Source: Escherichia virus TH15
Sequence record: MT446392.1
Strand: one strand, 5' to 3'
DNA: 64,000 nt
Of the stretch, positions 1 to 8,225 are shown in pieces. The translations under genes and the position numbers were made by a program. The stretch's first letter is position 1, and every line of letters starts with the position of its first letter. The notes below the pieces were generated by a model. It saw only the letters and a program-made list of their open reading frames with translations, searched no databases and had not been told where the DNA came from.

Positions 1-561
1 AATATGTTGATTGACCTGGAAGCAGGCCTTAAGGCGTTTGCTGACATGCCTATGCCAGATGATAATGAAGGCCTGAGCATTACAGACCTTATCGATGCCG
101 ATGATGAATTGTCTGGTGCTAAATTTGATGGTGATGATTCAGCCAAAGAAGAAGCCAAGCTCTTATTTGATGCTCCAGAAGCACCGGTTGAAGTAGTCGA
201 AGTTACCCAGGAAGTTGTTCCTGAACCAGAAGTTAAACTCGTTGAAATTGAAGTACCATTTGTCTCCAAAGACTTTGAAGAAGCTGTTGCTCAAATCATC
301 GAAGCTGAAACTCTTAAATTTACACTACCTAAAAACTTTAGCCCTAACCTGCTTATGTTGGGCAAAGCTCCTGGATACTGCACTCTCCCTTGGTGGATTT
401 ACCAGTGGATTAAAGAGACTCCAGATTGGAAAGAACGTCCTACCTCTTTTGCTCATGCAAGCGCGCATCAAACTCTGTTTAGTCTGATTTATTATATCAA
501 TCGCGATGGTTCGATTCTTATTCGCGAAACTCGCAACTCTTCTTTTGTTCGTTTAAATTAA
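1..561 (+). CDS. acidic hypothetical protein, probably 5'-truncated at window edge; position immediately upstream of hoc matches T4 inh (prohead protease inhibitor) by synteny only
   Basis: Open frame runs to nt 1 with no stop; 185-aa ORF in track; followed by terminator and hoc. Confidence 0.45.
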   Translation, partial: NMLIDLEAGLKAFADMPMPDDNEGLSITDLIDADDELSGAKFDGDDSAKEEAKLLFDAPEAPVEVVEVTQEVVPEPEVKLVEIEVPFVSKDFEEAVAQIIEAETLKFTLPKNFSPNLLMLGKAPGYCTLPWWIYQWIKETPDWKERPTSFAHASAHQTLFSLIYYINRDGSILIRETRNSSFVRLN

Positions 562-595: not shown

Positions 596-1723
596 ATGGC
601 TTTTATTGTATCTATTGCAGGTTCAGCCTCAATGAAAATTGGCGATAGCGCCAACTATACCGCTACTGCATCAGGAGCAGCGGTGGAAGGAACTGTCACA
701 TATGTATGGACTATTGATGGCGCCTCAAATCCAGAATCAACTAACGTTCTTCGTTATACGGGTACTGCTCCCGCGGGAAAGAAAATTTTAAAAGTAGTCG
801 CGACTTCCACACCGGCTGAAGGTGAGCCTGAAGTAGCCGAAAATACTTTTGAAGTAAATGTATCTAATAAAACTATGAGTATTTCTTTAGCTTTGGACCC
901 AGTTTCTGTATCTAAAGAAATTGGCCAATCTCAAGTTGTTACTGCTAACGTAACAGGTGCTCCTTCTGGAGCCACGATTGCTTATGTTTGGAAACGCAAT
1001 TCTAATGTAATCGCAGGTCAAACTGGTAAAACTATTACCGTAACCGAAGCAGCAGAAGCAAATTATACTTTGAACTGTGAAGTTACGGTTACTGCTCCTG
1101 AATATGATTCAGCTACTGCTACTAAAGGCGCGACGGTAACTTTTGCCAAGAAAACAATGTCAGGTGTTTCTGTTGTTTTAACACCGGAATCAATTAATGT
1201 TCCTAAAGATACACCAGCATCATTTAAGGCCGATGTAGTCGGTGCACCGAGTGAAGCATCCGGTGTTTATACATGGAAAAAAGATGGTTCTCCTGTTGAA
1301 GGTTCAACTTCCACTTTGACAATTGATACAAGTACCGAAGGTTCTCAAGTCATTGAAGTTTCGGTTGTTGTTTCTGCGCCCGATTATAAATCAGTAACAG
1401 TGACAACAACAGGTAATGTTACTATAACAGCTAAAGTTGCGCCGGAACCAGAAGGGGAACTTCCATATATTCATCCATTACCAGTTCGCAATTCAGCATA
1501 TATTTGGGCCGGTTGGTGGGTTATGGATGAGATTCAGAAGATGACTCTTGCTGGTAAAGACTGGAAAACCGATGAACCTGATAGTAATTATTATCTTCAT
1601 CGATACACTCTTGCCAAAATGCTTAATGATTATCCAGAGGTTGATGTACAAGAATCTCGCAATGGTCGAATTATTCATCGCACCGCGCTTGACGCTGGTA
1701 TTATCTACGACTACGTATATTAA
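596..1723 (+). CDS. hoc: Hoc, highly immunogenic outer capsid protein (Ig-like domains plus C-terminal capsid-binding domain)
   Basis: 375 aa; C-terminal block KVAPEPEGELPYIHPLP...WWVMDEIQKMT...YPEVDVQESRNG matches T4 Hoc as remembered; SD present. Confidence 0.9.
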   Translation: MAFIVSIAGSASMKIGDSANYTATASGAAVEGTVTYVWTIDGASNPESTNVLRYTGTAPAGKKILKVVATSTPAEGEPEVAENTFEVNVSNKTMSISLALDPVSVSKEIGQSQVVTANVTGAPSGATIAYVWKRNSNVIAGQTGKTITVTEAAEANYTLNCEVTVTAPEYDSATATKGATVTFAKKTMSGVSVVLTPESINVPKDTPASFKADVVGAPSEASGVYTWKKDGSPVEGSTSTLTIDTSTEGSQVIEVSVVVSAPDYKSVTVTTTGNVTITAKVAPEPEGELPYIHPLPVRNSAYIWAGWWVMDEIQKMTLAGKDWKTDEPDSNYYLHRYTLAKMLNDYPEVDVQESRNGRIIHRTALDAGIIYDYVY

Positions 1724-1728
1724 AAAAG

Positions 1729-1752
1729 AAAGGGCCTTGCGGCCCTTTTTTA
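1729..1752. terminator. bidirectional intrinsic terminator between convergent hoc and hoc-like genes
   Basis: GGGCC-ttgc-GGCCC hairpin flanked by A-run upstream and T6 downstream. Confidence 0.7.
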
Positions 1753-1753
1753 T

Positions 1754-2620
1754 TTACCAAACTAAATCCTTTTTACCTAAAATATATCCGTTTCTTGATT
1801 CCTGTACTTCAATATCAGGATATTTCTCAAGCATTTCTGCTATCTTAGCAAGCTCACATTTGTATTTAAATCTATCGTGCATAGGATTCTTATGCCATTC
1901 AAAGCCTTCTATCAAAGCCTCTAAAATCTCATCATGAACCCACCAGCCAATCCACATATAAACTTTATTTCGACCACCACTTAAATGACTAAGATGCTCA
2001 TACTGATTAAGGTCATGAACATAGATATCTTTACATTCTATAGTAGTAGAAGGAGGAACTAATTGAATGTCAATTAGAGCTGTTGTTTCTTTATATCCAC
2101 CATGACTAAATGCTGTAGTAGATAATGTATAAGTTCCGTAATAAGAATCATCTTCAACAGTAAGACTAAATTGTTCATCAGTTCCTATTTGAATGCCATT
2201 ACGAAGCCAAACACACTTTCTATGAACCCATGTTGGCTCTACTATACACTGAGGAGCAAAATGGACCTGGCCGCCTATAGGAACTTCTATATAAAGTCTA
2301 GTTTTAAACTGTATTGTCGGTTCTCTAAGTTCTTCGCCTATTTCTAATTGAATTCTATTAGTTCTATACATCTCCCCTGTTGACTTAACGCCTAAAAGAG
2401 CGTAATATTCTCCTTCGGCTGGATAACCGACATCCCATAAATTTAGAGTCCATGGGTTTTCAGAATCCAACTTAGGTATAAGAACTACATCTTTATACCA
2501 TGCTACGTGAATATCATCAGGATGTATATTTACAGGCAAAGAAATCTCGGATAAATCAAATGTAATATCTTGACCTATCTGAGCATAATGAGGACCATGC
2601 ATAACGGCATATAATTTCAT
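1754..2620 (-). CDS. Hoc-like capsid decoration protein paralog: divergent N-terminal domains plus conserved Hoc C-terminal capsid-binding module
   Basis: 288 aa; C-terminus YMWIGWWVHDEILEA...YPDIEVQESRNGYIL aligns with Hoc YIWAGWWVMDEIQKM...YPEVDVQESRNGRII in the same window; 9 nt downstream of collagen-like gene. Confidence 0.75.
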   Translation of the reverse strand: MKLYAVMHGPHYAQIGQDITFDLSEISLPVNIHPDDIHVAWYKDVVLIPKLDSENPWTLNLWDVGYPAEGEYYALLGVKSTGEMYRTNRIQLEIGEELREPTIQFKTRLYIEVPIGGQVHFAPQCIVEPTWVHRKCVWLRNGIQIGTDEQFSLTVEDDSYYGTYTLSTTAFSHGGYKETTALIDIQLVPPSTTIECKDIYVHDLNQYEHLSHLSGGRNKVYMWIGWWVHDEILEALIEGFEWHKNPMHDRFKYKCELAKIAEMLEKYPDIEVQESRNGYILGKKDLVW

Positions 2621-2629
2621 GGGTTCTCC

Positions 2630-3949
2630 TTAAGATGCAAATATTATAGGTATACGCCCATGATTATTATTTTTAATAACCTGAATATAGATGTCAGAAT
2701 CAACATAATCATTTAAAGACCCGGTTGGAAGCATTTTTAAAGTATACCAAAAACCTGTGGCTTTATCTATAATTTCTGCAGTTGAACCTTCTCGACACTT
2801 ATCAAAAGAAATGTTATCCCATGTTACCCATGAGCTAGTCAGGTTTAAATTATTATCTGACTTGTTTTCTAAGCCAACCGCGTCATAGTTTGTGGTTCTA
2901 CGATAAGAATATGAAGCTGGCAAAGAGTCATTAAATCTTTTGACACTGATATCAAATGTGTTTTTAGTTGTGACTTTATATTTCATAGAAATATTAGTAT
3001 CAGCTAGTTTGACCGTGGCTTCAGCATTAGGAGAAGACATTGAATTAAAGCTTAAAATAATTTCCCAATATTTCTTAGGTTCAAATGGTTTAAGCTTGTC
3101 ATATAATTCCTCTAATTGAGATTCTGTCAAGCTGCCAATATCAAGAGCAGGGCCTTGAGGGCCTTGTGCACCGTCTATACCATTTTTACCAGGGTCGCCT
3201 TTTAATCCTTGCAGGCCTTGTGGTCCTTGAGGGCCATCTGTTCCAGCAGGACCTTGGTCACCTTTATCTCCTTTATCACCCTTGTCTCCTTTTGCGCCAG
3301 CCGATGCCATTATGGCCCAATCGTCATTTGACGGCAACGGCGGAATACCGGTATGAGTCGTAAGACTAAAATAGGTAGCTCCTTGGTACGCTACGGCGTC
3401 ATTTGGTACATACTCAATAGATATATCATATTCACCTTTCCATATTAATCCTGTTGCTCCTGCGGGGCCCGGGTCGCCTTTAGGACCATCTAGACCATTT
3501 TTACCCGGGTCGCCTTTAGGACCTTGAATACCTTGAATACCTTGAGGGCCGGTAGCCCCATCAATGCCGTTAGTTCCATCAGCCCCTTTAGGACCTTGAA
3601 TACCAGGTGCACCATCCATCCCGTGTACACCTGCCAGGCCTTGGGGACCTTGTAGACCATCTATTCCAGCAGGACCTTGTGGTCCTGGGTCACCTTTTAA
3701 TCCTTGTGGGCCTTGAATGCCCTGGATACCTTGGTCGCCTTTTGGGCCTACTGCGCCATCAGAAATTCCTATAAATGTCTTTGCTTCTTCTGAAGTAGCT
3801 TTAGTTAAAAATTCTAAACTCCAATCGGTAGTTGAACTTGTCGTAATAAGGTCTTCTACTTGTTTTGTATTACCTGCCTCTGGATTTCTAATGGTTTTGC
3901 CAGAAAAGTTACCTCTACCATCATGCCCAAACAATCTTTCGTCAGCCAT
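2630..3949 (-). CDS. collagen-like protein with two Gly-X-Y tracts and a C-terminal globular domain
   Basis: 439 aa; residues ~66-167 and ~217-267 are uninterrupted G-X-Y triplets; late promoter 36 nt upstream. Confidence 0.8.
3149..3301 (-). repeat. collagen Gly-X-Y triplet tract 2 (about 17 triplets, includes [11 protein letters not shown])
   Basis: Read from translation. Confidence 0.8.
3449..3754 (-). repeat. collagen Gly-X-Y triplet tract 1 (about 34 triplets) within collagen-like CDS
   Basis: [22 protein letters not shown]... periodicity read from translation. Confidence 0.8.
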
Positions 3950-3984
3950 TGTATCTTCTCCAATTTATTTGAATAACACAATTG

Positions 3985-3992
3985 TATTTATA
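3985..3992 (-). promoter_or_regulatory. T4-type late promoter TATAAATA for collagen-like/hoc-like operon
   Basis: Plus strand TATTTATA = minus TATAAATA, 36 nt upstream of ATG at 3949. Confidence 0.7.
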
Positions 3993-4041
3993 CTGTTTAC
4001 AAGTTAAAAATTCTATGTTAGGATAGCTTCACTAACTCAAC

Positions 4042-4245
4042 ATGAGAATCATTATGGATAAGGTTAAAGTACATTTTTTACATGAATCGGGTATGACATT
4101 TATTGAAATCGCCAAGGTATTGGGCGGGACTGCTAAAGAAATGGCAAAGGCATGGGTTGATGTAGAACACGCCAAAACCAAATTTAAAGCCAAAGAGAAA
4201 GTTGTGTATCGTAAACGTTTGAATAACAAAAAGGTGAAGAAATGA
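4042..4245 (+). CDS. hypothetical small basic protein
   Basis: 67-aa ORF with ATG; position corresponds to T4 24.3/24.2 region. Confidence 0.4.
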   Translation: MRIIMDKVKVHFLHESGMTFIEIAKVLGGTAKEMAKAWVDVEHAKTKFKAKEKVVYRKRLNNKKVKK

Positions 4246-4505
4246 CATTCGCAGAAGAACTACGCCAAATGGCCAAAGAGTCACAAGATAAAGTTGCAAA
4301 TGACTTTATTGCTATATTTCGCAAAGTGGCTATTGCCGCCGCCGAGAATGGCAAAGATGCTGTTAATATGGCAGTTTCTGAAAAAGAGTATGAAGAAGGA
4401 AACCGCGCAAAGATATCTGAATTTCTGCGAGCAGAAAAATTTACATCTTTTACCTGGAATTATGACTGGCAAGATAACAAACCAATGCTGTATGTAAAAT
4501 TCTGA
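4242..4505 (+). CDS. hypothetical protein
   Basis: 87-aa ORF, ATGA overlap with upstream ORF. Confidence 0.45.
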   Translation: MTFAEELRQMAKESQDKVANDFIAIFRKVAIAAAENGKDAVNMAVSEKEYEEGNRAKISEFLRAEKFTSFTWNYDWQDNKPMLYVKF

Positions 4506-4508
4506 CCT

Positions 4509-4538
4509 TTTTGCTTCAAATAAAATTGTGGTATAATG
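4509..4538 (+). promoter_or_regulatory. T4 middle-type promoter: MotA-box-like TTTGCTTCA plus TATAAT -10
   Basis: TGCTT at 4512-4516, TATAAT at 4533-4538, upstream of rnlB. Confidence 0.5.
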
Positions 4539-4634
4539 GTTCTAGACCCTTTGAGACTATTAATTCCTTTCAGAGAAAGAAAGTATAGTGGGTCTAATTT
4601 ATAATGATATTTATAACATCAAAAGTGAGAGAAT

Positions 4635-5639
4635 ATGTTTAAGAAATATAACAGCCTTGAAAATCACTATAACAACAAGTTCATTGAAAAGATTCGCCTG
4701 CAAGGCTTCACCAGCGGTGAATGGGTAGCTCGTGAGAAAATTCATGGTACCAACTTTTCATTAATTATTGAACAAAATAATGTGACATGTGCGAAACGCA
4801 CTGGACCTATCCTACCTGCAGAAGATTTCTATGGCTACGAAATTGTACTCAAGAACTATGCAGATTCCATTAAAACTGTGCAGAGACTTTTACAGGATAT
4901 TAATTACCAATCATACCAAATTTATGGTGAGTTTGCTGGTACAGGTATCCAGAAGAATGTGGATTATGGCGACAAAGATTTCTATGTGTTTGATATCCGC
5001 GTTACTAAGGAAGATGGCTCTGAATCTGTTTTGACTGATTCATTGATGGAAGCCTTCTGTATTATCCATAAATTTAAGGTTGCCCCACGCCTGGCTACGG
5101 GTAGTTTTGAAGACTTGATTAAGCTCCCTAACGACCTGGATTCTGTGGTTCCTGATTACAATTTTACAGTAGATAATGCGGGTTTGACTACCGCGAATAC
5201 CACCGATTTTGACGCAAAGGTTGAAGGTAAAGTATTCACTGCAGAAGGGTATGTTCTTAAACCTGATACTCCTGCCTGGTTACCTAATGGTGAGCGCGTA
5301 GCGATTAAATGTAAGAACTCTAAATTCAGCGAAAAGAAAAAGTCTGATAAGCCTATCAAGGCTGCTGTTGTGTTGTCCCAGGAAGACCTGGACATTTTAT
5401 GGAAGTTTACCGATTATGTGACTGTTAACCGTATCAATAATGTTATCAGTAAAATTGGGGAAGTAACGCCAAAGGATTTTGGAAAGGTAATGGGTTTGAC
5501 TGTTCAAGATATTTTGGAAGAAGCGGGTCGGGAAGGCCTTGAATTAACCCAAACGGAAAATCCTGTTGAAGTTAAAAAGCAACTCATTGCAAATGTAAGA
5601 GATACATTAAGACATGTTTGGATTGCATTAATTAGTTAA
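4635..5639 (+). CDS. rnlB: RNA ligase 2
   Basis: 334 aa; MFKKY..LENHYN.KFIEK...[18 protein letters not shown]...[16 protein letters not shown] matches T4 Rnl2 as remembered; nucleotidyltransferase KxHG lysine motif. Confidence 0.92.
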
Positions 5640-5644
5640 TAAAA

Positions 5645-5670
5645 AAGGGCCGCAAGGCCCTTATTCTTTT
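5645..5670. terminator. bidirectional intrinsic terminator (GGGCC-gcaa-GGCCC) after rnlB (+) and gp24 paralog (-)
   Basis: Hairpin with A6 upstream and T-rich run downstream. Confidence 0.7.
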
Positions 5671-6944
5671 TCCAGTGGTGGAAGTTTAACACCAAGATAA
5701 GAACTCAATTGGCTTTGGTTAGCCATCTTATCCATATCAGCCCCATCAATAATGCGAGCTTCTTTATCGTCTTTAGCAACGGTATAAGGGTTCGCAGTCA
5801 GTGCATAACGAGCTAACAGTGCAACTGTAGGCTGTAAACTTTCAGGGTCAACGATAACCTTGAATTCCCCAACCGAGGTGTCACCCTCATCATCAACTTC
5901 ACTAAGACCTTCCGTATAAGGCGCATAATACAAAGATGCGACCGTCTGACCTTCACCCATATCGGCATTTACGCCAACAATAACATAATCGCATGGGCTA
6001 TTCATATCTGCATAAAGCGGCAAACCGTTCTTCAGAACGCCATAGGCCAATTCATCCTGGTCGTCCTTTTTCTCAACCCAACCAGAAGCTGCTAAAATAG
6101 CTGCACACCGGGAAGAGGCAACTGCATATGTACCAGCGAACGAAGTCTGACGTTGAACTGCGGAATTCATTTCGCACATATAATAATACAGGGTTCGAGC
6201 CCGGTCTTGCGCATTATCATATCTCGGGTCGGTAAGATTCAATACACCTTTTTCAGAAACACCTTGTACCTTGAAGCGGGAACTAACAGTAATAAGGGAT
6301 TGCAGTACGTCCTTATTAATTTCCTCTGCCATTTGAATGCCAAGGATATTATCAATAAAATCTGTTGCGTCGAAACCATTTGCTTCCAGGTCCTGAGCAA
6401 GCTCAACAGTTAAAGAGGTTTTCAGTTTTCTGGATTTGACTTCGGTCTGCCATTTATCGATACGGAAACCGGCTTCAGCAATTTCAGGATGACCCTGTTC
6501 AAATTTATTAGTGAAAGCTGCATCCGACATCATTCTTATATGGCCAGCAGCAATGGCTTCAGAAATAACTTCACCCAAATCAGTTTCAAGGGTCCCAGCA
6601 AAAGGAGAAGCTTCCAAAACTTTGAATACAACGCTTTCGAACTGGAACATATCGCCGACTGCATAAGCTTCGTCTTTATTTGTAAATTCTGGGATATTCT
6701 TACGCTCGAACATGCCAATCTGGCCTGCAAATGTTGCTCCACCAAGATATGTCATTTTATCATCTGGGTTCAGAACACGAACACCATACAACGCTGCAAC
6801 AGGCTGGGTAGTTTTCTGTTCGGCAACGAGTGCTTTAAAAATTCGTTTATTCGTAGCCTGGGTATAAGAAAGCAAATTAGGACGGGCGACCTGGTTGGCC
6901 GCCGTTAATGTTGATTCGTGAATTAGTGCGTTAATCTTTTGCAT
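5661..6944 (-). CDS. second gp24-like head vertex protein (divergent tandem paralog)
   Basis: 427 aa; shares NKWxxxVKSRKLKTxLTVELAQDxEANGF and INKDVLQSLITVS blocks with adjacent gp24; start ATG abuts gp24 stop (TAAATG). Confidence 0.8.
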   Translation of the reverse strand: MQKINALIHESTLTAANQVARPNLLSYTQATNKRIFKALVAEQKTTQPVAALYGVRVLNPDDKMTYLGGATFAGQIGMFERKNIPEFTNKDEAYAVGDMFQFESVVFKVLEASPFAGTLETDLGEVISEAIAAGHIRMMSDAAFTNKFEQGHPEIAEAGFRIDKWQTEVKSRKLKTSLTVELAQDLEANGFDATDFIDNILGIQMAEEINKDVLQSLITVSSRFKVQGVSEKGVLNLTDPRYDNAQDRARTLYYYMCEMNSAVQRQTSFAGTYAVASSRCAAILAASGWVEKKDDQDELAYGVLKNGLPLYADMNSPCDYVIVGVNADMGEGQTVASLYYAPYTEGLSEVDDEGDTSVGEFKVIVDPESLQPTVALLARYALTANPYTVAKDDKEARIIDGADMDKMANQSQLSSYLGVKLPPLEKE

Positions 6945-8225
6945 TTACGCCTCATAAATGATTGGCGGAAGTTTAACACCGAGCAGATAAGACATATTGC
7001 TCTGGCCGGCCATTAAATCCATATTAGTTGCATCGATAATACGAGCTTCTTTGTCGTCTTTAGCAACGGTGTAAGGGTTAGCTGAAAGTGCATATCGAAC
7101 CATCAGGGAGATAGATGGCTGCAAGCTGTCTGGGTCCACAATGACCTTAAATGCACCTACGTGTTCTTCATCATCTAAGTCCAGGCCTTCGGTATAAGGA
7201 GCATAGAAGATTGAGCCTACGACTTCGTTTCCGCCATAATTTTCTTTAACGCCAACGGTTACATAATCTAATGGACTGTTAACATCACAGAATACAGGAA
7301 GACCATTAATCAAATAACCATACGCGGTTTCCGGGAGCCATTGTTCATCTTCAGGTTTATGTTTCAACCAACCGGAACCGGCGAGCATCGCGGCCACACG
7401 ACTTGAGGCAACAACGAATGTACCAGAGTAAGATGTAGTTTTCTGAATTTCAGAGTTCATTTCGCACACCAGTTCGTACAGTTTACGTGCGCCTTCTGGA
7501 GCTGAATCATATGTCAAATCGATGAAACCTTTATCAGAAACGCCAGTGACTTTATAACGCTTGGAAACGGTAATCAGAGACTGAAGAACATCTTTGTTAA
7601 TTTCATCTGCCATAGTAGTTGCAAGCAGGTCTTCCAGGAAAGCAGGAGCATTAAAACCGTTTGCTTCCATATCCTGTGCAAGTTCAACAGTCAGTGCAGT
7701 TTTCAATTTACGGGATTTAACAGGAGCATTCCATTTATTAACCTGGAATACAGCGTTACTAATTTCAACATCACCAGCTTCAAATTTCTCGGTGTGTGCA
7801 GCATCAGGAACTAAACGAATAGTCGATGCAATAAGACCTTCTTGCAGAACATCAGATAATACTGTTTCTGTAGTCGTTGCAAATGGATTATCCACCAGAG
7901 CTTTGTAAACGATATTTTGATATTTTACATATTCGCCTTTAGCAACAGGTTGAGTAGCTGTAGCTAATTCTGGAATAGTTGTACGGTCTTTAGAACCGAC
8001 TTCACCACCATAAGTAGCACCAGTCTGGAAACTGAATTCATTATCAGGAGTAAGATATTTAACACCGTACAGCGCAGCAACAGGCTGGTTAGTACGTTGT
8101 TCAGCGATGATATCGCGGTAAATCAATTTAGTTGTAGCGCGGGTCAAAGCAACAAGATTCGGGCGGCCTAATGAGTTGCTGGATGTAGTAGTTGACTCGC
8201 GCAGCAGTTCGTTAATCTTTGCCAT
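6945..8225 (-). CDS. 24: gp24 head vertex protein
   Basis: 426 aa; N-terminus MAKINELLRESTTT...GRPNLVALTRATTKLIY matches T4 gp24 as remembered. Confidence 0.9.
   Translation of the reverse strand: MAKINELLRESTTTSSNSLGRPNLVALTRATTKLIYRDIIAEQRTNQPVAALYGVKYLTPDNEFSFQTGATYGGEVGSKDRTTIPELATATQPVAKGEYVKYQNIVYKALVDNPFATTTETVLSDVLQEGLIASTIRLVPDAAHTEKFEAGDVEISNAVFQVNKWNAPVKSRKLKTALTVELAQDMEANGFNAPAFLEDLLATTMADEINKDVLQSLITVSKRYKVTGVSDKGFIDLTYDSAPEGARKLYELVCEMNSEIQKTTSYSGTFVVASSRVAAMLAGSGWLKHKPEDEQWLPETAYGYLINGLPVFCDVNSPLDYVTVGVKENYGGNEVVGSIFYAPYTEGLDLDDEEHVGAFKVIVDPDSLQPSISLMVRYALSANPYTVAKDDKEARIIDATNMDLMAGQSNMSYLLGVKLPPIIYEA

Follow-up and report, generated by a model that had tools for sequence, protein, structure and literature searches.

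A collagen-stalk fibre gene paired with a second Hoc paralogue in Escherichia virus TH15 and other T4-like phages: a candidate capsid-tethered fibre

T4-like phages are the reference for capsid decoration, and their Hoc protein is widely employed for phage display and figures in the mucus-adherence model. Appendages of the capsid, trimeric or filamentous, raise host attachment in phage phi29, whose gp8.5 head fibres form a supercoil of alpha-helices and carry their own base for binding the capsid, and in the flagellotropic phage 7-7-1, whose capsid fibres mediate the first contact with the host. A collagen-like counterpart is found in the Bacillus siphophage SPP1. Its gp12 is small and non-essential, with a collagen motif at the N-terminus and an alpha-helical C-terminal part; it binds directly to the capsid as a collagen-like trimer at the centre of hexamers and has been proposed to act as an adhesin (PMC7602432, PMC5292684). 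For collagen shafts the best documentation comes from tail fibres. Lateral tail fibres with such shafts (phi24B gp61, lambda-like Stf variants, collagen-like proteins of E. coli prophages) combine an N-terminal anchor, a long flexible shaft and a small receptor-binding globular domain at the C-terminus. They are encoded in tail modules and seen on tails. A collagen-like shaft also underlay the tail-fibre hypothesis in PhiM9.

The window analysed here is the whole stretch of 64,000 nucleotides from Escherichia virus TH15 (MT446392.1), in which a gene for a collagen-like fibre precedes hoc-2, a second paralogue of hoc. The analogy of this fibre with SPP1 gp12 is functional only: unlike gp12, the TH15 protein, 439 residues long, combines two long collagen tracts with a CBM knot and a tip folded as a beta-sandwich, and apparently needs a separate Hoc-type adaptor. 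It would share with the fibres of phi29 and 7-7-1 a role in raising host attachment; no homology to these head fibres was found, save a sub-threshold match to Phage_head_fibr in one family member, P0132 (E = 0.0099). The succession of anchor, long flexible shaft and small globular domain is that of the collagen-shaft lateral tail fibres, but the TH15 fibre is encoded among head genes and coupled to a predicted capsid-binding protein, and no homology of its tip to those fibres was detected. Its true homologues are proteins of VR7, JS10, CGG4-1 and other members of PHROG 5073, encoded at the same position upstream of hoc-2. Comparative evidence suggests a fibre attached to the capsid, and not the "tail fibre" of the databases.

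Anatomy of the fibre

The fibre gene lies on the minus strand at positions 2630-3949, stop codon (2630-2632) included. From the N-terminus, its product is composed of a domain of type A (residues 1-64; 3758-3949), a first collagen tract (residues 65-169; 3443-3757) of 35 Gly-X-Y triplets, or 34 if the last one, GLI, is left out, an insert of 48 residues (170-217; 3299-3442), a second tract (218-268; 3146-3298) of 17 triplets and a tip of 171 residues (269-439; 2633-3145). The sequence-only reading had described this ORF in very similar terms, with tracts of about 34 and 17 triplets, an insert of about 50 residues and a C-terminal domain of about 170. The tracts stand far above chance since the match to Pfam Collagen (PF01391; E = 3.2e-26) scores 91.3 bits for a cut-off of 27.2. 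Matches to the NCBIfam adhesins Lcl, Scl1 and Scl2 were discarded, being confined to the collagen repeats and far under their cut-offs. Collagen has a standard rise of 0.286 nm per residue. Multiplied by the number of residues, this gives predicted triple helices of ~30 nm for the first tract and ~15 nm for the second. That the fibre is a trimer is deduced from the collagen repeat, the structure predictions being of the monomer only.

The N-terminal domain joins a family-specific anchor peptide of about 30 residues (about residues 1-30; 3860-3949) to a single unit of a generic repeat of trimeric fibre shafts. Among 1.84 billion representative proteins, a profile of the domain matched just 31, in each case at the N-terminus. 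Its second half resembles tandem repeats of large fibre proteins, and the shaft repeat is also present in proteins bearing an endosialidase-chaperone domain. The 64-residue version is a shortened form common only to TH15, ABTNLsp5 and P0001. At least two types of anchor are distinguished, A with the motif GHDGRG, which is invariant in alignment A2, and B with GEKEGVFYGY. Scanning IMG/VR with the anchor motif returned Cronus and CGG4-1 again and no others.

The fold of the insert between the collagen tracts is that of CBM5/12, a small antiparallel beta structure known from chitin-binding domains, and is recognised here for the first time. The insert itself scores 18.8 bits against PF02839 (E = 1.7e-3), below the cut-off of 26.2, and homologues exceed this cut-off with 30.4 (P0001), 39.1 (P0004), 37.8 (P0008) and 28.5 bits (P0129); the insert of P0001 is 85% identical to that of TH15. 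The insert is a putative glycan binder and may just as well act as a structural knot for registration inside the stalk. Phages 7-7-1 and Pa193 have CBM5/12-like knots in their tail fibres.

The tip is made of a conserved neck helix followed by a 10-strand beta-sandwich without known relative, also a new finding. A clear assignment of this domain to a tail fibre or to an unrelated family had been set beforehand as the outcome that would speak against a capsid role; no match to a tail-fibre tip or to any other known family was found. Used as sole query in a word-indexed homology search, the domain gave no match, and homologues were retrieved only with the full-length fibre. The C1q/TNF fold, the jelly-roll trimerisation domain of BclA and C1q-TNF type, was tested for and is absent. 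The exact 439-residue sequence has no copy among 15 billion proteins, the nearest database match having 59% identity across 60% of the length, and on this basis we regard the TH15 allele as new. The same 439-aa gene is carried by a Logan contig (L018).

The two-gene unit and the Hoc-2 protein

The fibre gene and hoc-2 are surrounded by head genes (inh, hoc and two copies of gp24). The canonical hoc, here hoc-1 (596-1723, plus strand; 375 aa; PHROG 1149, E = 2.5e-109), converges with the cassette, and a GC-rich hairpin flanked by T-runs (1729-1748) forms a bidirectional terminator for both. Upstream of the fibre gene are found 24.3 (DUF2774; 4042-4245), 24.2 (4242-4505) and rnlB (4635-5639, plus strand). 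The sequence-only reading was right in placing the fibre gene on the strand opposite to hoc and rnlB. It had assigned the gene to the slot where T4 has only the small ORFs 24.2 and 24.3; this needs correcting, as hoc and 24.3 flank the cassette and both small ORFs are kept.

An exact T4-type late promoter motif, TATAAATA, is present at 3985-3992 on the minus strand, 35 nt 5' of the fibre ATG at 3949 (36 nt had been announced), and a Shine-Dalgarno GGAG (3958-3961) precedes the ATG by 8 nt. The window has 19 TATAAATA sites, ten of them within the ~9% of non-coding sequence, an about ten-fold intergenic enrichment. Most intergenic sites are 18-48 nt 5' of a start codon on the same strand, a geometry shared by the site at 3992. 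Among relatives, the exact motif precedes the fibre gene in ABTNLsp5 (at -34) and Phynn only; five have variants with one mismatch near the gene and five others have none nearby. The fibre stop codon (2632-2630) is separated from the hoc-2 ATG (2620) by a 9-nt gap containing AGGAG. No terminator occurs before the end of hoc-2, 3' of which a hairpin is found in every relative, so that the two genes form one unit, as their spacing had led the earlier reading to propose. The unit would be transcribed as a whole, and probably late, from this promoter, which would depend on gp55/gp33.

Hoc-2 (1754-2620, minus strand; 288 aa; PHROG 1149, E = 1.3e-43) appears to be a dedicated Hoc paralogue that has kept the capsid-binding domain of T4 Hoc next to an Ig-like region of its own. 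Residues 214-284 (1769-1981) align to T4 Hoc 297-365 (E = 1.6e-12), as found in the capsid cryo-EM entries 5VF3, 8T1X, 8T9R, 9MKB and 9MOF; the C-terminal domain of T4 Hoc has a role in capsid binding (PMC5292684). Resemblance to Hoc-1 is limited to the C-terminal ~70 residues (42% identity), the Ig regions being unrelated in sequence. As to the putative Ig-like character of the rest, the PHROG 1149 alignment spans residues 5-286, a match to titin Ig is weak (E = 0.23) and Pfam gives no hit; the orthologue on the P0009 contig has a faint Ig_2 match. Like T4 Hoc, for which adhesion has been proposed, Hoc-2 is predicted to be a late, non-essential, Ig-like protein. Unlike Hoc-1, which varies from 178 to 944 aa, it has a near-constant length of ~285 aa and is always accompanied by a fibre gene, whose product is itself no Hoc. 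Shorter forms, with roughly a single Ig domain, occur in Cronus (166 aa) and contig L020 (195 aa). A protein identical to TH15 Hoc-2 (P0148) is encoded on a 171.6-kb NCBI contig.

Distribution and modularity in T4-like phages

The fibre gene is not peculiar to TH15 and belongs to an already annotated family, whose members are labelled "hypothetical" or "tail fiber protein" in RefSeq and PHROG 5073. They include VR7 ORF196w, VR25 gp248, JS10 EpJS10_0176 (annotated 'tail fiber-like protein'), CGG4-1 gp212, Cronus gp244 and Aeromonas phage 65 ST65p147, annotated 'similar to collagen-like proteins' and adjoining 'hoc-2'. No proteomic, structural or transcript data on family members were found in the literature, and published accounts of Kosakonia and Serratia T4-like phages held nothing relevant to the cassette. 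Fibre and hoc-2 are neighbours on the same strand in VR7, VR25, ABTNLsp5, CLB_P2, JS10, CGG4-1, Cronus, FBB1, Phynn, Kosakonia 305, GomatiRiver_11, Aeromonas phage 65, and the metagenomic contigs L010, L011, L020, L022 and that of P0009. The pairing survives relocation of the cassette (Cronus, phage 65, Phynn) and a reversed gene order (L020). The cassette is absent from T4 and from the close relative VR20, in agreement with the claim that it is an accessory insertion. Because VR20 has two gp24 copies but no cassette, we rejected the idea that cassette and gp24 duplication are strictly linked.

This dispensability, together with a degraded copy in IME08 and a GC content of 0.32-0.38 in the non-collagen parts of the TH15 gene against 0.41 for the window, would fit a gene whose product is no virion component, either a moron-type collagen-like adhesin that is secreted or released by lysis or a decaying accessory gene. 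We hold this to be very improbable: ORFs are intact and the conserved anchor is kept over at least eight genera of two subfamilies, a late promoter motif is present in TH15 and the partner is a structural protein.

The family is modular, which had not been noticed before: behind a conserved N-terminal anchor come a stalk of anything from 0 to ~104 triplets and an exchangeable tip, of which at least three types are shuffled independently of the type of N-domain. Most PHROG 5073 homologues have the type A anchor and a collagen stalk with the CBM5/12 knot, mostly with the same tip fold as TH15. VR7, VR25 and Kosakonia 305 have the type B anchor and tips unlike that of TH15. Contig L022 has two tandem cassettes, first one in which fibre and Hoc-2 are both of type A and then one in which both are of type B, an arrangement first reported here.

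The database label raises the possibility that the protein is an accessory fibre of the tail, neck or baseplate, with its N-terminus on a tail component and Hoc-2 as an unrelated head decoration sharing the transcript. The match to phrog_5073 'tail fiber protein' is strong (E = 1.4e-56, residues 2-268), lateral tail fibres, phi24B gp61 among them, use collagen-like shafts, such a shaft was taken as a sign of a tail fibre in PhiM9, and both the shaft repeat shared with endosialidase-chaperone-domain proteins and the knots of the 7-7-1 and Pa193 tail fibres point the same way. However, no experimental basis was found for the label. The gene is never inside a tail or baseplate module, and a Hoc paralogue adjoins it in all loci examined, even when relocated. 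The genome with two fibres has two matched hoc-2 genes, and the Ig region of Hoc-2 follows the fibre anchor, not the genome background (see below). A tail location is therefore unlikely.

Co-variation of the fibre with Hoc-2 and its attachment

Co-variation was computed over 14 loci, a set of phylogenetically non-independent taxa that fall largely in two clades. The fibre N-domain and the Ig region of Hoc-2 vary together (rho = 0.84; Mantel p = 2e-4), a relation not described before, and still do so when the tip is controlled for (partial rho 0.78). The corresponding value for the tip is 0.19, although tip DNA sits between the two. The N-domain does not follow the genome background (rnlB -0.14, gp24 0.06, Hoc-1 0.00). 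The C-domain of Hoc-2 is correlated with gp24 (rho 0.52, p = 0.012) and with the Hoc-1 C-domain (0.41, p = 0.049), for which the Ig region gives 0.03 and 0.16, respectively. Hoc-2 is thus two-faced: its C-domain follows the capsid genes and its Ig region follows the fibre N-domain. Exchange of whole cassettes combined with tip-only swaps could account for part of this co-variation without physical contact.

A small dedicated partner encoded after a fibre gene is the classic layout of fibre chaperones (T4 gp38/gp57A, lambda Tfa). Hoc-2 could on this model be an assembly factor of the fibre and not its attachment site, which would agree with the cognate pairing on L022. We find it improbable: fibre chaperones work on the C-terminal tip, and the idea is disfavoured because Hoc-2 follows the N-domain (0.78 against 0.19); moreover a chaperone would have no reason to conserve a capsid-binding domain varying in step with capsid genes. 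Alternatively, the fibre might bind the capsid directly, as SPP1 gp12 does at the centre of hexamers and phi29 gp8.5 at quasi-3-folds, with Hoc-2 a separate decoration that is co-expressed, or that modulates binding or competes for sites. This model has a precedent in a collagen-like trimer that binds the capsid, agrees with the head-gene neighbourhood and avoids the mismatch between a trimeric fibre and Hoc, which binds as a monomer. Direct binding leaves unexplained why the anchor co-varies with the Hoc-2 Ig region rather than with capsid genes (rho 0.06 with gp24) and why the second fibre type has its own Hoc-2, and we judge it rather doubtful.

We privilege the hypothesis that Hoc-2 is a capsid-bound adaptor displaying a trimeric adhesin fibre of roughly 45 nm, to which, with its location on the virion, we give about an even chance. 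The Hoc-2 C-terminal domain would seat on gp23 hexamers and its Ig-like region would grip the N-terminal anchor of the fibre, and long flexible fibres would therefore stand on the capsid, each with its collagen stalk broken by the CBM5/12-fold knot and ending in a variable beta-sandwich. The putative CBM-like knot and the exchangeable tip may bind surface glycans or other ligands and so aid the initial encounter with host cells, mucus or particles, for which the capsid fibres of 7-7-1 are a precedent. The sequence-only reading had advanced a fibrous capsid decoration or adhesin. This link to the capsid gains from the conserved pairing with a Hoc paralogue bearing a capsid domain, the anchor/Ig co-variation and the dual cassette of L022; the documentation of collagen shafts mainly in tail fibres and the lack of conservation of the exact promoter weaken it. 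The adaptor hypothesis is further favoured by the constancy of the anchor amid varying stalks and tips, the surrounding head genes, the fitting geometry of the late promoter and the precedents of SPP1 gp12 and 7-7-1. Also against the adaptor are the symmetry mismatch, the shaft repeat common in tail fibres that makes up the second half of the N-domain, the shortened Hoc-2 of Cronus and L020, and the 'tail fiber protein' label in PHROG 5073 and RefSeq.

A broader proposal, which we make tentatively and put slightly short of an even chance, is that of an unrecognised two-component head-fibre system. The Hoc-2 Ig region would capture the ~30-residue anchor with at least two orthogonal specificities, A and B, able to share one virion, stalk and tip would be freely exchangeable, and the family would be mis-annotated as tail fibres. 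If so, many therapeutic and environmental T4-like phages own an overlooked second organelle, on the head, for binding to the host or the environment; the "tail fiber protein" label, wrong for the whole family, misleads predictions of host range; and a kind of capsid fibre hard to see by electron microscopy gains a molecular identity. The A and B anchor/Ig pairs could also serve as an orthogonal plug-and-socket for trimeric cargo on T4 capsids. Hoc-2 may also act alone, which counts against the adaptor role, because IME08 retains hoc-2 while its fibre gene is relocated and has lost the N-domain.

Anatomy and transcription of the fibre gene

The fibre gene (2630..3949, minus strand) codes for a 439-aa protein composed of an N-terminal domain of 64 aa (aa 1-64), a collagen tract in which 35 Gly-X-Y triplets follow one another without a break (aa 65-169), an insert of 48 aa (aa 170-217), a second tract of 17 triplets (aa 218-268) and a C-terminal domain of 171 aa. 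The sequence-only reading described this collagen ORF accurately; the Pfam Collagen model matches it with 91 bits (cut-off 27). The exact protein sequence is absent from a collection of 15 billion proteins. Its best relative has 59% identity across 60% of the length, and the same 439-aa gene is called on a Logan assembly. The window is a T4-like straboviral genome whose nearest relatives are Gaprivervirus and Dhakavirus phages (VR20, VR7, VR25, ABTNLsp5). The gene family and its position beside "hoc-2" are already present in public annotations, and the window ORF is therefore a new allele of a known, uncharacterised family.

At its start the N-terminal domain bears the motif L-[YF]-GHDGRG, which is invariant. 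When 1.84 billion representatives are searched exhaustively with a profile, the domain turns up in only 31 proteins, always at the extreme amino terminus. Its second half resembles a shaft repeat that large fibre proteins carry in tandem copies, one of these proteins also having an endosialidase-chaperone domain, so that the family-specific part is the first ~30 residues.

A TATAAATA late promoter motif (3992..3985, minus strand) lies 35 nt upstream of the fibre ATG, and GGAG is found 8 nt upstream of the start. The motif occurs 19 times in the window, 10 of them within the ~9% of non-coding sequence and mostly 18-48 nt 5' of a same-strand start. This intergenic enrichment and typical spacing make the 3992 site resemble a genuine T4-type late promoter, as had been claimed. 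We propose that the cassette is transcribed late from this site. The caveat to late expression is that the exact promoter is kept only in ABTNLsp5 and Phynn among the relatives; in some others a near-consensus variant or read-through of the gp23/24 transcript would drive the cassette instead.

The second gene, hoc-2 (1754..2620, minus strand, 288 aa; Hoc-like PHROG 1149, E = 1.3e-43), starts 9 nt past the fibre stop codon with AGGAG in front. The sole terminator-like hairpin of the cassette (1729-1748) is 3' of hoc-2 and is common to the convergent canonical hoc (hoc-1, 596..1723), a layout that bears out the two-gene operon suggested earlier. The insertion slot had been placed between hoc and rnlB: the cassette is indeed beside hoc, but its other neighbour is 24.3 (DUF2774), which is retained with 24.2 at 4042-4505. 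A second TATAAATA is found at 4608-4615 (minus strand) in the rnlB-24.2 intergenic region, 658 nt 5' of the fibre ATG and antisense to 24.2/24.3. The exact distal motif is also present in VR7, VR25, Kosakonia 305 and contig L011, at -703 to -776. It may serve either as a distal late promoter that has been conserved or as a source of antisense transcripts for the early genes.

Pairing with hoc-2 and modularity of the family

The loci examined, from twelve phages (two subfamilies, at least eight genera) and five metagenomic contigs, all have the fibre gene adjoining a same-strand Hoc paralogue of about 285 aa, with a 2-30-nt gap or a stop/start overlap at the junction and a hairpin after the pair; IME08 is the one exception. 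The pairing is kept after relocation right after gp24 (Cronus, FBB1), beside tk (phage 65) or to an isolated position (Phynn). VR20, a congener of VR7 and VR25, has neither gene. In contig L020 (2904-5159) the pair is kept with its order reversed: a 195-aa Hoc-2 made up of roughly one Ig domain and the capsid-binding domain comes first, followed after 9 nt by a fibre with yet another tip type. Fibre-family genes are never within tail modules at these loci, which argues against the product being a tail fibre, as the database label "tail fiber protein" would have it; collagen shafts are known best from tail fibres, and a literature search turned up no experiments on any member of the family and no experimental basis for the label.

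The metagenomic T4-like contig L022 (3501-8493) carries two complete tandem cassettes. The first has a type A fibre then a type A Hoc-2, and the second a type B fibre and a type B Hoc-2, 73% and 88.5% identical to their VR25 counterparts, respectively. Duplicating Hoc-2 with each fibre would not be needed for generic decoration. The exception, IME08 (L009 2285-3472 and 4986-5852), has a local rearrangement that splits the genes: the collagen gene, moved between gp24b and rnlB, has no N-domain and its annotated start is a non-ATG codon, while hoc-2 stays in its original slot. The rearrangement looks to have uncoupled the fibre, perhaps inactivating it.

Two anchor types are distinguished. Type A, marked by GHDGRG and 64-86 aa long, occurs in the window, ABTNLsp5, CLB_P2, JS10, CGG4-1, Cronus, FBB1, Phynn and the Aeromonas phages; type B (GEKEGVFYGYSLYDL) is short, at 33 aa, and belongs to VR7, VR25 and Kosakonia 305. 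Stalks range from zero triplets (Phynn) to ~104 (VR25). The related proteins P0121 (410 aa) and P0122 (281 aa) are near-identical apart from the loss of stalk and CBM knot in the latter, and in the 239-aa Phynn member (L012 3276-3995) and P0138, which have no collagen tract, the anchor is fused straight to a neck helix and beta-sandwich tip. The C-terminal tips, of which at least three unrelated kinds exist, are combined with anchors independently; JS10 joins a type A anchor to the tip of VR25, whose own anchor is type B. To judge from these sequences, such modularity is the pattern of a fibre whose proximal attachment is conserved and whose distal end, presumably ligand-binding, can be exchanged, the two being separated by a spacer.

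Co-variation of Hoc-2 with the fibre anchor

Hoc-2 residues 214-284 align to T4 Hoc 297-365 of capsid cryo-EM entries (E = 1.6e-12), which is the C-terminal fragment of T4 Hoc implicated in capsid binding (PMC5292684). The remainder of Hoc-2 has no sequence relation to Hoc-1. Hoc-2 as a whole has an identical match on an NCBI contig of 171.6 kb. Hoc-2 length is near constant, at 272-290 aa, the exceptions being Cronus (166 aa) and L020; Hoc-1 has 178, 264, 367, 375, 470 or 944 aa among relatives, a spread implying gain and loss of Ig domains.

Across 14 loci the fibre N-domain co-varies with the Hoc-2 Ig region (rho 0.84, Mantel p = 2e-4; partial rho 0.78 once the tip is controlled for) and not with rnlB (rho -0.14), gp24 (0.06) or the Hoc-1 C-domain (0.00). 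Despite its DNA position between the N-domain and hoc-2, the tip correlates weakly with the Ig region (rho 0.51; partial rho 0.19 once the N-domain is controlled for). VR25 and the window are 99% similar in rnlB and gp24 with unrelated anchors (0.09) and Hoc-2 Ig regions (0.04), and JS10 and VR25 have a common tip (0.57) with differing anchors and Ig regions. Whole-cassette exchange combined with tip-only swaps could in principle create this co-variation without physical contact; the taxa are also largely confined to two clades. The Hoc-2 C-domain follows gp24 (rho 0.52, p = 0.012) and the Hoc-1 C-domain (rho 0.41, p = 0.049), to which the Ig region is indifferent (rho 0.03 and 0.16, respectively). 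Hoc-2 is in this respect two-faced, its C-domain co-varying with capsid proteins as expected for a part fitting the resident capsid. A role as chaperone for the fibre is disfavoured because it is the N-domain, not the tip, that Hoc-2 tracks, and because Hoc-2 retains a capsid-binding domain.

We favor a model in which Hoc-2 sits on gp23 hexamers via its Hoc domain and its Ig region grips the N-terminal peptide of the fibre. The fibre would trimerise into two triple-helical segments, which the usual rise of collagen would make ~30 and ~15 nm long. Three CBM5/12-fold domains would form a knot between them, and three beta-sandwich tips would cap the end. The outcome would be a capsid bearing long flexible adhesin fibres, with precedents in SPP1 gp12 and in phage capsid fibres such as those of 7-7-1. 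The anatomy, the folds, the operon layout, the pairing and the co-variation are direct results of the analysis; trimerisation, timing of expression, Hoc-2-fibre contact, virion location and ligand are inferences. Caveats to the adaptor role are the symmetry mismatch of a trimeric fibre on a monomeric attachment, the reduction of Hoc-2 to about one Ig domain in Cronus and L020, and the hoc-2 that IME08 retains alongside a degraded fibre gene. The literature searched appears not to describe the obligate pairing of each fibre with its cognate, dedicated Hoc paralogue, the existence of two anchor/adaptor types or the implied two-component head fibre.

Genomic surroundings of the cassette

Outside the collagen tracts, the cassette (hoc-2, tip) and the 24.2/24.3 region (1601-3200, 3801-4800) have a GC content of 0.32-0.38 versus a window mean of 0.407; in the collagen tracts GGN and CCN codons raise it to 0.50. 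This composition is consistent with the cassette being an accessory segment that is exchanged horizontally. The inh ORF (prohead protease inhibitor; 4-561, plus strand) is cut by the window start, leaving 185 aa versus 226 aa on the source contig L018. A second bidirectional GC-rich hairpin terminator (5645-5662), between convergent rnlB and gp24, has the motif AAGGGCC-GCAA-GGCCCTT, nearly equal to the terminator at 1729-1748. The capsid vertex protein gene gp24 is present as tandem paralogues (5661-6944 and 6945-8225, minus strand; 427 and 426 aa), and an exact TATAAATA at 8258-8251 precedes the upstream one (6945-8225). Two gp24 copies occur in every Tevenvirinae relative with the fibre cassette; VR20 has two without the cassette, and the link is therefore not strict.
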